Assembly: GCA_963710605.1 (NCBI GenBank)
Contig: CAVQBA010000007.1
Span: forward strand, 448,001-512,000
DNA length: 64,000 bases
Source: an uncultured cyanobacterium
GTDB lineage: Bacteria > Cyanobacteriota > Cyanobacteriia > Cyanobacteriales > Cyanobacteriaceae
Direction of reading: 5' to 3'
The first letter of the stretch is position 1; each line of letters begins with the position of its first letter. The position numbers and the translations under genes were made by a program. Positions 49,112 to 52,551 of the stretch are shown piece after piece. The notes beneath the pieces were generated by a model that was given only the letters and a program-made list of their open reading frames with translations, was not told the origin of the DNA and made no database searches.

Positions 49112-49219
49112 TACAGCGTTTCCCATCTTTATGAAGTATATTTCTAATTTACAAGTCCCCCTTACAAAGGGGGATTTAGGGGGATTAATCTGTATCTTAT
49201 GAAACTGAGAATTGCTATA
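49112..49219. mobile_element. MITE-like element, same family as 6508-6708 (inverted)
   Basis: End sequences resemble the reverse complements of the 6508-6708 termini; internal CCCCCTT/AAGGGGG hairpin. Confidence 0.6.
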
Positions 49220-49353: not shown

Positions 49354-49740
49354 TGGAGCTGAGCAGAGTTGAACTGCTGTCCAAACCAGCTATTTACTTA
49401 TCGATCGTTCACAGGTTTAGCCTATCTAATCCTCAGGCGGGAACTATCACTTATCCCTGACAGTGGGATTTTCTCGTATTATCTTAATTTAAAAACTGAC
49501 AAGAAGCAGTCGTTAAAAGCATCCGTTATTTATTGCCTATAGTACTTAACGGAGTCACACTATAAGCGCTCGAACCAATTTTTTAGGTCTTAGGCTGCTA
49601 CTGGAGCTGCTTTACGAGCAAAAGGAACTATGTTGTTCGCAGTTACAATTTTTTTGAATCTTTGATTAATGAGAGGAGATTCACTCTCAACCTGTATCAC
49701 GGGTCAGCTTTCACAAGCCTGTCGAAACCTTTACAGCCCC
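49354..49740 (-). ncRNA. ssrA: tmRNA; tag peptide ANNIVPFARKAAPVAA* at 49590-49640
   Basis: 5' GGGGCTGTAAAGGTTTCGAC, 3' T-arm GCAGTTCAACTCTGC and CAGCTCCA acceptor end (CCA not encoded); cyanobacterial-type tag. Confidence 0.97.
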
Positions 49741-49844
49741 TTGTTTTCCCTTTCGGTATTTACCATCATAACTTATAATTTATTAGTTGACAACCCCCAA
49801 TCATGAGTAAGGAGTAAGGAGTAACAAGTAATGAGTAAGAAGTT

Positions 49845-51356
49845 TTAATTGTCCATTGTCAATTGTCGATCGTTCACTGCTGGATGTGCCTCCAATACAA
49901 ACTCGATCGGCTGAAGCCGGCGCTGCGCGATCGTCGAAGTGGGCTGTGCCGTAAGGAGATTTGAGGGGAATTGCCCGTCGAGATAAGTAGAAGAATCCCC
50001 CCTAGCCCCCCTTTGTAAGGGGGGAACAAGATCGTGGTCGTGGTTGTCAGTATGAGGTATCAGGGTATGATAAGTGTCTGTTTTTGTATTTTGAATTGCA
50101 TTGAGTATTAAGACGTTGATATCGGAAGGAAGTTTACGGATACCAGGGGCTATATGGTTCTTTAATAAGTCATAGGGGTGAGCTTGTTGGTCTAAATGTG
50201 AACCATCGTCCGAGAGGAAGGCAGTAAAGTTATCACCGACAAAGGTACGTCTGCCATTTTGATAACGAACATTTTTATCGAATTCTGAATAACCGTTGAT
50301 GAAGCCATAAAGGTGGGCAGTTTCATGGAGGATGGTGGTAAGCAGATCGTATTTACCATAGGCTTCTGAGTCAGGAGTTGCCAAAAATGCGAACTCCGAA
50401 TTCCGAATTGCGAACTCCAAATTCTCCATAGGAGTAGCGTCGATAAACCAGCCAACACCGTTAGCATCGTGGTCAATGGAGACGATACCAGCATTGGGTT
50501 TACCCTCTGAGTCAAAACCTGTGATAGTGGCTTCTGCTAGTTGTCCAGAGGGAAGATCTTTTATTTCATAGGTGATGTCGATGTTGGTTTGAGGTAAAAG
50601 GGTTGACCAGATATGGTTTACGCTATTATTGAGTTGGTTAATAGTTTGGAGATTTGAATTATGGATATCACTGCTGAGGAGTTGCTCAGAAGGTATAATG
50701 CTGGAGAAAGGGATTTCACTAATATATGTTTGCGTAGAATCAATCTTATCGATGTTGATTTGAGTGAGATTAATTTGAGTGGTGCTAGATTGGATAATAC
50801 TTGTTTGACCAGAGTAAATCTCGACCGATCTATTTTTGTTAATGTCTTTTTGGAAACCACTTTCTTTGATGAAGTTAGTTTGGAGAGAGCTAATTTGAGC
50901 GGGGTCAATTTGTACGGTTCTAGAATGAGACGGGTTAATCTCAAAAGGAGTAACTTGGAAAATATTATCTGGTATGAATCTTGGCTGGAAGATGTCGATC
51001 TTCGAGAGTCCAATCTGCGTGGTGCTGACATGGGAGAGATTTATCTTGTTGATTGCAACTTTCTTGGAGCTAGGATGGAGGAAATATCCTTTCTGCCTAT
51101 GAGAGAGAGAGTTATCATGCCAGACGGAACTATCATAACTGATGATTGGATTTTTACTAGTTAAATTCTCACCATACTGTGCATTTGTTTCTATTATTGA
51201 AAAATCGGCTAGAAGGTTAGAAGTCAATGGGGAACAAGAGACATGATTTTCATCTTCAATGATATTTTGAATTTCTTTTGGAAGATGAGAAAAGAAATTG
51301 TTACTTGTTAATTCTTCTAAATAGAGCTCGCTTGTAGGGTGCGTTCTATTAAACCG
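49845..51356 (-). pseudogene. Fragment of a large-protein gene: variable region, conserved QLAEATITGFD..GWFID block, HExxH motif
   Basis: Frame is open 49845-51356 with no ATG near its 5' end (track start is TTG 51227); LLTTILHETAHLYGF; 3' end dissolves into repeats. Confidence 0.7.
50661..51164 (+). CDS. Pentapeptide-repeat protein 1, nested antisense in the minus-strand frame
   Basis: ITAEELLRRYNAGERDF N-cap, xNLxx repeats, IMPDG C-cap; GGAG upstream of the ATG. Confidence 0.88.
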   Translation: MDITAEELLRRYNAGERDFTNICLRRINLIDVDLSEINLSGARLDNTCLTRVNLDRSIFVNVFLETTFFDEVSLERANLSGVNLYGSRMRRVNLKRSNLENIIWYESWLEDVDLRESNLRGADMGEIYLVDCNFLGARMEEISFLPMRERVIMPDGTIITDDWIFTS

Positions 51357-51527
51357 TTACATATTTAAGACCATCCCATATAATATAGAACGCACCACCC
51401 TTATTTATTCATTAACGATTTTTTGAGGTATTTGTGGTATGTTATTTAATTCCCAATCAGACGGATAAATTCCTCGAGCAATAAAGCACTAAGATATACG
51501 ATACATAAAATAAAAGCGAAACCCAAC
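51328..51527. repeat. REP-like cluster duplicated at 52290-52507
   Basis: TCGCTTGTAGGGTGCGTTCTATTAAACCG...CCCAAT and ACGATACATAAAAT.AAAGCGAAACCCAAC occur in both. Confidence 0.85.
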
Positions 51528-51539
51528 TGTATTGGTTAT

Positions 51540-52307
51540 GGAGTATTCATTATTATCTAATGGTGTATCGTCGATAAACCAGCCGACACCGTTAGCATTG
51601 TGGTCAATGGAGACTATACCTGCGTTAGGTTTACCGAAAGAGTCAAACCCTGTGATAGTTGCTTCTGCTAGTTGTCTTGTTGGTAAGTCTTTTATTTCAT
51701 AGGTGATGTCAATGTCGGTTTGAGGTAAGAGGGTTGACCAGATATTGTTTACGCTATTATTTAGTTGGTTAAGTGTTTAGATCTTTTTTGAATTATGCCA
51801 AAAAGAAGGAAAATTACTGCTGATGAATTGATTCGACAATATAATAGGGGGAACAGAGATTTCCGTCGGATTCGTATATGGGATTGGAGAAATGATGTTT
51901 TCAATGGTGTCGATCTTAGGGGTATTAATCTTGAAGATACTTTTATCGATATCAATCTAAGTGGTGCTATTTTGAGAAATGCTAATTTCAAAAATTCTAT
52001 CTGGGTTAGTGGAGACTGGCAAAATATTGATTTTACTGATTCCAATATGATCGGTGTTTCCAATGTGGATAGTTTCATCTTTACCCGTTGCGATTTTAGT
52101 GGAACTGTTTGGAGTAACGTCAAATTTTTTCAGTCTACTTTCGTTGACTGCAATTTGAGCTTCACTGATTTTGATAACGCCAGTCTTGTCGAAGTTGATC
52201 TTTACGGTTGAATTGTTTGTATTAATTAATGTAATATTATTTGCTTGAGATAATTTTAATGGTTGAGCTAATATATTAGTGCGATCGTATCGCTTGTAGG
52301 GTGCGTT
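51540..52307 (-). pseudogene. Second, degraded copy of the minus-strand frame (two in-frame stops)
   Basis: Hand translation keeps register through NQLNNSVNNIWSTLLPQTDIDITYEIKDLPTRQLAEATITGFDSFGKPNAGIVSIDHNANGVGWFIDDTP; stops at 51777-79 (TAA) and 51957-59 (TAG). Confidence 0.75.
51795..52211 (+). CDS. Pentapeptide-repeat protein 2, nested antisense
   Basis: ITADELIRQYNRGNRDF N-cap, xDFxx/xNLxx repeats. Confidence 0.85.
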   Translation: MPKRRKITADELIRQYNRGNRDFRRIRIWDWRNDVFNGVDLRGINLEDTFIDINLSGAILRNANFKNSIWVSGDWQNIDFTDSNMIGVSNVDSFIFTRCDFSGTVWSNVKFFQSTFVDCNLSFTDFDNASLVEVDLYG

Positions 52308-52551
52308 CTATTAAACCGTTACATATTTAAGACCATCCCATATCATATAAAACGCACCACCCTTATTTATTAACTAACGATTTCTTGAGGTATTTGTGGT
52401 ATGTTATCTAATCCCCAATTAGTGAGATAGAAGATATTGTAGGGAACGGTTAAGCCTCGCAAAGATTAATATACACACGATACATAAAATGAAAGCGAAA
52501 CCCAACAACCGACTATCTACTAGCTCGTAATGAGAATCGGGAATATAACGA

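Follow-up and report, generated by a model that had tools for sequence, protein, structure and literature searches.

Pentapeptide-repeat genes that appear to lie antisense within the linker-coding part of large exoprotein genes: a family of modules in an uncultured cyanobacterium

We describe here a locus in a stretch of DNA from an uncultured cyanobacterium of the family Cyanobacteriaceae (GenBank assembly GCA_963710605.1, contig CAVQBA010000007.1, positions 448,001 to 512,000 of the forward strand), which stretch of 64,000 nucleotides, numbered from its first letter, is referred to below as the window. The locus consists of two neighbouring modules, each with a gene for a pentapeptide-repeat protein (PRP) on the plus strand, in the first of which modules the PRP gene is nested in a long open frame of the minus strand. 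The analysis was one of sequence and model computation, carried out on this genome (G000; an assembly of 3.93 Mb with 33% G+C, 85% complete) and on others, denoted by G-numbers, whereas L-numbers designate the loci of a protein domain introduced below.

Module 1 is built around an open frame of 503 codons on the minus strand (49848–51356; listed as an open reading frame, ORF, at 49845–51227, with 460 aa from a TTG). PRP1, of 167 aa (50661–51164, plus strand), lies wholly within that frame and is codon-aligned with it, so that the two ORFs form a nested antisense pair. Beside PRP1 the minus frame contains constant block 1 (50441–50641), which piece corresponds to the first 67 codons (NQLNNSVNHIWSTLLPQ...GVGWFI) of a domain that we refer to as zincin-like. 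Within the block and 5' of PRP1, on the plus strand, stands a promoter-like pair of hexamers (TTGACC at 50603–50608 and TATTAT at 50624–50629, with a 15-nt spacer), and between block and gene the start signals of PRP1 occupy 50648–50663 (GGAG at 50648–50651, a 9-nt spacer, and the ATG at 50661–50663). Beyond PRP1 a spacer unique to the locus (51165–51327), whose minus frame has the TTG start (51227) as well as what is left of a nuclease-tail motif, leads to repeat cluster 1 (51328–51527, plus strand), which comprises a hairpin-like element (51328–51400) and ends in part of a repeat that we call rep3 (51498–51527). Module 2, the more decayed of the two, has the same order of parts: constant block 2 (51552–51786, minus strand), a fragment of the zincin-like domain without a start codon; PRP2, of 138 aa (51795–52211, plus strand); and repeat cluster 2 (52290–52507, plus strand), with its hairpin-like element at 52290–52362 and rep3 at 52448–52507.

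The two modules share a gap-free direct repeat of 235 nt (50421–50655 vs 51552–51786) with 85% identity, and within that repeat the 201-nt blocks 1 and 2 (the latter taken as 51572–51772) differ at exactly 24 positions (88% identity), 16 of them third positions of the minus frame, the changed codons being synonymous in 14 instances and not so in 6. Each block is followed by TTGAATT and the ATG of a gene that matches the Pfam Pentapeptide family. A global alignment of the two modules gives 83–93% identity in the block, some 30–55% in the genes, and then 92–97% at 51333–51452, the clusters on the far side being 92% identical over 140 nt (51328–51467 vs 52290–52429) and 97% identical over another 30 nt (51498–51527 vs 52477–52506). 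The original prediction had described just such a gap-free block with about 24 mismatches, many of them synonymous, a pentapeptide gene after each block, genes alike in the N-terminal cap and little beyond it, the same cluster—termed REP-like, after the repetitive extragenic palindromic (REP) elements—closing both modules, and a resulting constant–variable–constant layout, which description was borne out throughout. The similarity and the copy number of the block are far above chance, since the block is matched 21 times in the genome in one search and 20 times by blastn. In the minus frame of block 2 an in-frame TAA stands just upstream, and the frame ends within repeat cluster 1 ('...VGFRFYFMYRIS', followed by a stop); block 2 is a truncated remnant, with only some 73 codons of the domain left, whereas module 1 retains the domain whole and has lost both ends of the frame around it.

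Both proteins belong to the Pentapeptide family (PF00805; cut-off 20.2), PRP1 with 81.4 bits (3e-23) and PRP2 with 53.4 bits (1.8e-14), and they have the N-terminal cap in common and little else, being 28% identical overall. PRP1 is capped by ITAEELLRRYNAGERDF at the N-terminus and by VIMPDGTI at the C-terminus, and its codons include no TTA, CTA, or TCA; PRP2 has lost the GGAG motif (TTTAGATC...), has no 'MPDG' C-terminal cap, and carries one stop in the aligned antisense frame. The named PRP subfamilies of NCBIfam were not reached (HetL 64.8 bits vs a cut-off of 260; Alr5209 58.7 vs 125), nor were the Qnr and MfpA models, against which PRP1 and PRP2 scored 17–27 bits with cut-offs of 240–500.

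In most PRP genes of the family a GGAG-like motif (GGAG or GAGG) stands 7–12 nt upstream of an ATG that belongs to the gene itself, and these signals have a counterpart on the other strand. The bases 50648–50663 read on the minus strand as a conserved motif of the large protein, H-N-S-N-L-Q, the complement of the PRP ATG being a nearly invariant His of that protein (H13 in alignment A1, H189 in A5), and the motif HNS(N/T)(L/P)Q mirrors the ATG, the spacer, and GGAG or GAGGAG in most modules of all the genomes. The pair TTGACC-N15-TATTAT is highly conserved among the G000 modules and may act as a promoter; a scan with the sigma-70 consensus listed no site in the block.

Read from its start, the minus frame of module 1 comprises a repeat-derived beginning ('RFNRTHPT'), the motif 'LTSNNFFSHLPKEIQNIIEDEN', a low-complexity linker antisense to PRP1, the domain with its HETAH motif, and a degraded C-terminus. 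Since 'LTSNNFFSHLPKEIQNIIEDEN' corresponds to a tail found after the Endonuclease_NS domain of relatives (the proteins of L037, L039, and L040), and since the C-terminus is degraded relative to the 788-aa paralogue P0002, the copy in the window is a piece of what was formerly a larger gene. The domain itself has no match in Pfam; 163 relatives were found in a large protein collection, nearly all of them unnamed or 'hypothetical', and the named ones are cyanobacterial. H125, E126, and H129 of the HETAH motif are nearly invariant among 44 aligned sequences. A model of the domain, though poor (mean predicted local distance difference test, pLDDT, of 51.8), places the motif in a helix (119–134) that follows a three-stranded sheet, and its best match in the PDB, a weak one, is leishmanolysin (E 0.012), other zincins scoring lower. 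With the NCBIfam model NF038122 (metallo_LGF) the window ORF obtained 17.3 bits and the protein P0009 26.4, both short of the cut-off of 80 bits. What the model suggests is therefore expressed by the label zincin-like and by no closer one. A GC-rich palindromic element (ccccctagcccccc...gggggg) lies in the window at 49995–50031, with a similar piece near 49153–49185; it is in frame within zincin-like ORFs, where it reads 'PPLQRGARGDSS', as also in P0002, and the contigs of runs X1–X4 contain it in great abundance, with many and different flanks.

When block 1 was set against four other copies, minus-frame third positions accounted for 16 of 24, 24 of 30, 22 of 30, and 25 of 33 mismatches, and the ratios of synonymous to non-synonymous codon changes were 14:6, 22:5, 21:5, and 20:6; the block has, by these counts, evolved as coding sequence under protein constraint in the minus frame. 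The linker encoded opposite PRP1 gave a model with a mean pLDDT of 44.2, no secondary structure, and no confident fold, as would fit a flexible spacer. A weak profile match to 6fls (E 0.073) had suggested that the linker might itself be a beta-helix of the pentapeptide type, which candidate was rejected in view of that model; the minus ORF has no match to the Pfam PRP family.

The modules of the window belong to a family of about 20–25 members in this genome. Fifteen PRP genes (those marked by the analyst as adjoining a block copy) stand beside a block, and most of them start some 20 nt past it on the ORF maps, while several further PRP genes have the same N-terminal cap with the block nearly gone. 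Most or all of the domain is present in four copies (the window, C7:75049–75699, C7:5110–5763, and C6:182733–183385), with one partial copy in C2, and a further complete gene (788 aa) lies at G000:C6:182724–183440; the remaining block copies keep 50–170 nt, always of the PRP-proximal end. Most of the large ORFs are cut in G000, and the PRP genes are whole. The PRPs of the family are pairwise 25–49% identical, apart from the tandem pair C6_565285/C6_566068 (81%), a plain duplication. Further tandem arrays of truncated modules occur at G000:C6:258300–260200 (three) and G000:C6:565200–566800 (two), each unit ending in rep3. The only Endonuclease_NS match of the genome, at C5:276186–276791, is a stand-alone open frame of 256 codons.

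The repeats accompany the modules. Of rep3, the last 60 nt of the cluster, there are 27 copies in the genome, 16 of which lie beside modules, all in the orientation of the module and either right after the end of the PRP gene or close upstream of a truncated block, and the hairpin-like element (of the 51328–51400 type) has four copies, all beside modules. The truncation points of the block vary between copies, many being close to a repeat element, and so do not suggest a fixed recombination site. The clusters have no match in Rfam, and the DNA of cluster 2 folds no better than its shuffles (z = −0.45). Set beside REP elements and their associated tyrosine transposases (RAYT), the copy numbers here are low (27 and 4); 'REP-like' is a fair description if taken to mean a likeness and no more. 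Two of the 12 matches of Y1_Tnp (PF01797) in the genome adjoin modules (C2:30920–31282 and C2:137939–138268), both above the cut-off, and an ORF similar by eye to a Y1-transposase lies beside a module of G190 (L047:3153–3569).

Codon for codon, the minus frame is in register with that of the PRP, and in most modules it is open through the whole PRP gene, a state that at the 33% G+C of this genome cannot be due to chance. Three codons are the complements of stops, namely TTA, CTA, and TCA, and together they account for 8.5% of all codons in the background (TTA 6.29%; TTG 1.37%). In the 15 block-linked PRP genes (2,477 codons, 248 of them for Leu) TTA was found 3 times, TTG 144 times, CTA twice, and TCA not at all, which usage leaves 0.2 antisense stops per 100 codons and ten of the genes without any; in the other 34 PRP genes of G000, 626 of the 1,169 Leu codons are TTA, there are 9.38 antisense stops per 100 codons, and only two genes are stop-free. 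Over 20 family members the figures are similar (TTA 6 vs TTG 209, CTA 2, TCA 0 of 250 Ser codons), and yet the other choices stay AT-biased—AAA 70 to AAG 13, GAA 178 to GAG 34, AAT 250 to AAC 70—the codons for Lys, Glu, Gln, Asn, and Asp retaining the A/T preference of the genome. Since that preference is intact elsewhere, the avoidance concerns just those codons by which the opposite frame would be interrupted; at p = 0.61 the probability of at most 5 such codons among 248 is 3e-91. The codon counts show both frames to be open to an extent far beyond what chance or composition would give.

As to which of the two frames is conserved as protein, differences at PRP codon positions 1/2/3 numbered 14/15/38, 42/42/78, 41/40/73, 34/23/63, 21/27/51, and 47/37/79 in six pairs of genes, and in all of seven pairs the differences silent only in the PRP frame outnumbered those silent only in the antisense frame (22 vs 4, 38 vs 3, 40 vs 8, 39 vs 12, 29 vs 8, 39 vs 8, and 47 vs 9). 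These comparisons show the PRP frame to be under purifying selection as a protein, the antisense linker frame being just kept free of stops.

Beyond this genome, the domain is absent from all 28 good genomes in the family and order, where it was otherwise seen only in an incomplete congener, and is present in 10 of 376 good-quality genomes forming an even sample of the phylum. Six of the matches in the phylum sample lie within open frames of 4,970–10,437 codons, three of which (L037, L039, and L040) contain a nested PRP gene. In these three the large frame encodes, in this order, Endonuclease_NS, a linker some 190 residues long in which five-residue repeats of the type (S/T)Q(I/V) abound, the zincin-like domain, a beta-sandwich-like part, and cadherin-like and PKD-like repeats; the Pfam domains on database homologues are PF01223, PF17963, PF17892, and PF18911. 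At all 11 loci of the close subfamily (those with domains over 50% identical) a PRP ORF lies nested in the other strand, immediately upstream of the domain. The 14 PRPs of that subfamily start with ATG in 12 cases, with GTG in one, and with TTG in one, and 11 of them have no antisense stop, the other three, with one stop each, being truncated modules of a single locus. Beside the distant domains in the giant frames L042, L043, and L046, no nested PRP ORF was found. Tandem truncated modules recur elsewhere (three in L044 and two in L049). The contig G323:C2 (L053, L059) has an open frame of 10,437 codons with two zincin-like domains about 25 kb apart, a nested PRP having been looked for only beside the second, and a scan of genome contigs with a single protein gave six weak non-cyanobacterial loci (L011–L016).

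The two frames fare differently in protein databases. A collection of 15 billion proteins contains the long opposite frames but not the PRPs of module 1 (50661–51161, plus strand), L037:1087–1515 (minus strand), or L040:943–1470 (minus strand); it does contain PRP2, whose opposite frame is broken, and has the PRP of L039 on record as 'pentapeptide repeat-containing protein'. Gene callers seem to keep just one of the two frames.

The constant and the variable parts of the modules have different histories. In the PRP tree, C1_183925 groups with the PRPs of G308 and G107, to which it is 57–59% identical (support 100/100), and three PRPs of G000 beginning with 'MVW' group with G279 and G190 (support 97/91), whereas such PRPs find at most 36% identity within G000; none of 200 bootstrap trees has G000 as one clade, and the starred branches force at least three changes. 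In the block tree, by contrast, the nine usable G000 blocks form one tight group (47 columns, SH-aLRT support of 80), block proteins being some 83–89% identical within G000 and about 55–60% across genomes. Old PRP types shared between genera, combined with blocks that are alike within G000, therefore imply that recombination or gene conversion has acted in the block or close to it, and the trees, with which the best-partner identities agree, show blocks and PRPs to have been joined by recombination. A diversity-generating retroelement was considered and set aside, since some 20 copies with mostly synonymous changes would be unlike a pair of template and variable repeats.

In our reading, which we consider probable, a large exoprotein gene contains, antisense to the part that codes for its linker, the nested PRP gene, and the modules of the window belong to a multi-module family so arranged. 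The larger ORF would encode the low-complexity linker, as a mirror image of the PRP, and then the zincin-like domain with its HExxH motif, and the promoter-like region, the Shine–Dalgarno-like motif, and the ATG of the PRP would all be inside the larger ORF. The constant block would correspond to the first 67 codons of the domain plus the 5' signals of the PRP, the variable part to the PRP plus the linker, and the REP-like cluster to a repeat that accompanies the modules and is found close to many of the points at which the larger ORF is cut. The PRP may be translated from its own signals and may have the large exoprotein as its target, in which case it would most likely be an inhibitor of the nuclease domain, or an immunity factor against it, that works by mimicking DNA; the PRP mRNA, being the full complement of the large one, may also couple the expression of both; and the open minus frames in G000 may be relics.

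Several points weigh against this reading. In G000 most of the large ORFs are cut, so that two-strand coding here may be a relic and not a working state. Within the PRP overlap the large frames have no stop-complement codons at all (0 of 2,112 and 0 of 1,980), against 7.8% (139 of 1,774) and 5.1% (271 of 5,324) outside it, which zero is so by construction, open PRP ORFs having been chosen, and carries weight only in that every close locus has one. The substitution alignments were made in the PRP frame, which is thereby favoured at gaps; the 81%-identical pair, nearly gap-free, still gives 22 vs 4. A rejection of TTG-to-TTA changes in the truncated modules had no power to appear, because in the sole close pair of truncated modules none of 17 control codons differs. 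The block tree is built on no more than 47 columns, with an SH-aLRT of 80 for its G000 group, and the bootstrap of the PRP tree is not fully settled. The zincin label is drawn from the HETAH motif, the weak leishmanolysin match, and a sub-threshold NCBIfam score; the promoter-like hexamers, with their 15-nt spacer, went unlisted by the consensus scan; and the inhibitor role of the PRP is a proposal by analogy.

A stronger form of the nested arrangement, which we hold to be unlikely, would have the PRP gene as an immunity gene placed antisense inside a toxin gene, the protein inhibiting, as a DNA mimic, the Endonuclease_NS domain of a giant secreted protein, the mRNA, with its full complementarity to the giant mRNA, acting as an antisense regulator, and the modules, each a linker with its PRP, being swapped between loci by recombination by way of the block; were that so, the neighbourhood of the toxin and its immunity would always move together, being the same DNA. 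That a PRP might inhibit the nuclease domain is a first guess, offered because PRPs can mimic DNA and because PRP genes adjoin His-Me finger nuclease toxins that have no other immunity gene. Endonuclease_NS we take to be a His-Me finger nuclease also.

The original prediction had likened the modules to the orphan or silent cassettes of polymorphic-toxin or antigenic-variation loci, and on a fuller version of that proposal, which seems to us quite unlikely, stored cassettes would donate a variable segment with its nested PRP gene, through the block (and the repeat or the C-terminal cap), to an expressed full-length gene. Donation of this kind would produce the constant–variable–constant identity profile, the truncated modules in tandem beside a fuller copy (in G000 as well as in L044 and L049), and the incongruence between constant and variable parts, which incongruence the prediction had named as a point to examine and which is indeed present, the histories not being those of one old duplication; occasional re-use would, besides, account for an antisense frame that in truncated modules is still open or has a single break. 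Yet most PRPs have their own ATG and GGAG-like motif (PRP2 having lost the latter) and are conserved as proteins under purifying selection, as befits genes and not silent segments, and the variable part is an internal linker and not a toxin tip. The expectation of further block copies and of a full-length host gene was upheld in its first half, with about 20 copies and the complete gene of 788 aa, and not in its second, for no intact full-length host gene with a nuclease domain was found in the G000 assembly, itself 85% complete, the sole Endonuclease_NS match being the stand-alone frame noted above. The cut points of the block, moreover, differ and are in many cases near rep3, with no common crossover site, and no swapped junction was seen in the contigs, contigs being all that was inspected; several contig joints of low depth that link paralogous parts (50664 to 51906, 51692 to 50618, and 52510 to 50655) are indistinguishable from paralogues of relatives. 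The antisense partner gene, which the prediction had mentioned in passing, is the main feature described here.

Very unlikely, in turn, is a single old tandem duplication followed by ordinary divergence, in which the block would have been held by constraint on the domain while the repeats drifted fast, with no recombination involved. The preponderance of synonymous changes in the minus frame of the block (14:6) does mean that constraint explains part of the conservation, and the pair C6_565285/C6_566068 is exactly such a plain duplication; uniform divergence, however, would hardly pass abruptly from 83–93% to 30–55% at the block edge and return to 92–97% in a non-coding cluster, nor would it leave PRPs of G000 closer to those of other genera than to one another while the blocks of G000 group together, so that the single duplication is contradicted by the alignments and trees as we read them. 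Least credible of all, with a minimal chance of being correct, is that only the PRPs are real genes, the antisense frames being a side effect of composition or dead remnants and the block a conserved upstream region of the PRPs, for although the truncated copies always keep the PRP-proximal end with its promoter-like hexamers and GGAG, the antisense frame reveals no constraint on residues and a structureless model (mean pLDDT of 44.2), and most large ORFs are cut in G000, antisense stops abound in the majority of the other 34 PRP genes, the family is otherwise AT-biased, the block changes mainly at minus-frame third positions, and in other genomes the antisense frame runs within open frames of 5,000–10,000 codons, where known domains precede and follow it without a change of frame. 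Limited to G000, where the modules may well be relics of a former two-strand state, that last idea is part of the nested reading and no rival to it.

The arrangement may be compared with several known systems. In the antigenic variation of pilE/pilS, short constant stretches flank multi-copy variable segments, a disposition also found here; unlike pilS, most of the cassettes here come with a start codon and a ribosome-binding motif of their own and show conservation over the entire protein, and no single expression locus was found. Polymorphic toxins (PMC3482391), as the portions of that account available to us describe them, are likewise large multi-domain exoproteins with one small partner gene for each variable segment, with tandem truncated copies that carry a constant piece—such truncated copies being present here as well—and with a diversity made by recombination; here, by contrast, it is an internal linker that varies instead of a C-terminal toxin tip, the constant piece is situated 3' of that variable part, the small gene is antisense inside the large one instead of downstream on the same strand, and an intact large gene with the nuclease domain was not found in the G000 assembly. 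Those portions contain no mention of pentapeptide or antisense arrangements. A closer likeness in gene content is offered by the YjbI-like pentapeptide-repeat genes that stand beside GH-E His-Me finger nuclease toxins for which no other immunity gene was found (PMC5714182, in the parts available), where, too, the gene of a nuclease toxin has a pentapeptide-repeat gene associated with it; the genes there are neighbours and here nested antisense, the nuclease family is another, and function is shown in neither case. For the proposed role of the PRP the model is provided by MfpA, Qnr, and AlbG, members of the same protein family, whose rods mimic B-form DNA and block a DNA-handling enzyme, which is gyrase according to the excerpts seen of PMC8145042, the target proposed here being a nuclease.

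For the nesting itself the nearest parallels are the embedded antisense overlapping genes olg1 and olg2 of Pseudomonas aeruginosa (PMC8850804) and, in E. coli O157:H7, pop, opposite ompA (PMC7103648), and laoB (PMC5810103), in each of which, to go by the sections of those papers at hand, a long ORF lies wholly inside a gene of the opposite strand and both frames are argued to be coding. According to the same sections, those genes are evolutionarily novel or overprinted, belong to no known family, and come with expression data, whereas the modules described here are known from their sequence alone; in turn, the nested gene here is of an old and known family and has the better-conserved frame, the surrounding frame being seemingly just open, and the arrangement occurs in several cyanobacterial genera and in multiple copies within one genome. 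A literature search, from whose scope most subscription journals fell outside, gave no description of a PRP gene nested antisense in another gene.

With respect to the flanks of the two modules, a transfer-messenger RNA (tmRNA) gene adjoins the module region (Rfam RF00023, 61.6 bits with a gathering score of 47) at 49400–49740 on the minus strand, perhaps extending to 49919; the search was started at 49400, which limit cut off the 3' end of the gene, and the model of the permuted tmRNA gave 33.9 bits at 49590–49919, under its gathering score. In an 857-nt contig of a relative (run X2, depth 60) position 49781 is joined to 52565 by 94 other letters, and this contig links the tmRNA side to the end of the AI-2E transporter gene, the relative being without the whole 2.8-kb stretch of two modules, which stretch is therefore an insertion or a deletion between related organisms. 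In the only congener (G001, 67% complete) the flanking genes are on other contigs with other neighbours, and the synteny is uninformative.

Whether working protein genes lie nested antisense in bacterial genes is still disputed. The published cases, as far as the parts of those reports at our disposal tell, concern young, lineage-specific ORFs of no known family; the present case differs in that a classic family is involved, the nested frame being the better conserved, in several cyanobacterial genera and, in some of these, within giant host genes. The evidence, though read from nucleotide letters only, includes three codons that are almost absent from a set of genes otherwise AT-biased and a motif of the large protein that mirrors the ribosome-binding site and start of the small gene, which features make the case a clean and directly testable one. 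For annotation the consequence would be that, where gene callers keep one frame, nested PRPs drop out of the protein collections; and for the family the arrangement may offer a first functional lead to some of the many cyanobacterial PRPs of unknown role.

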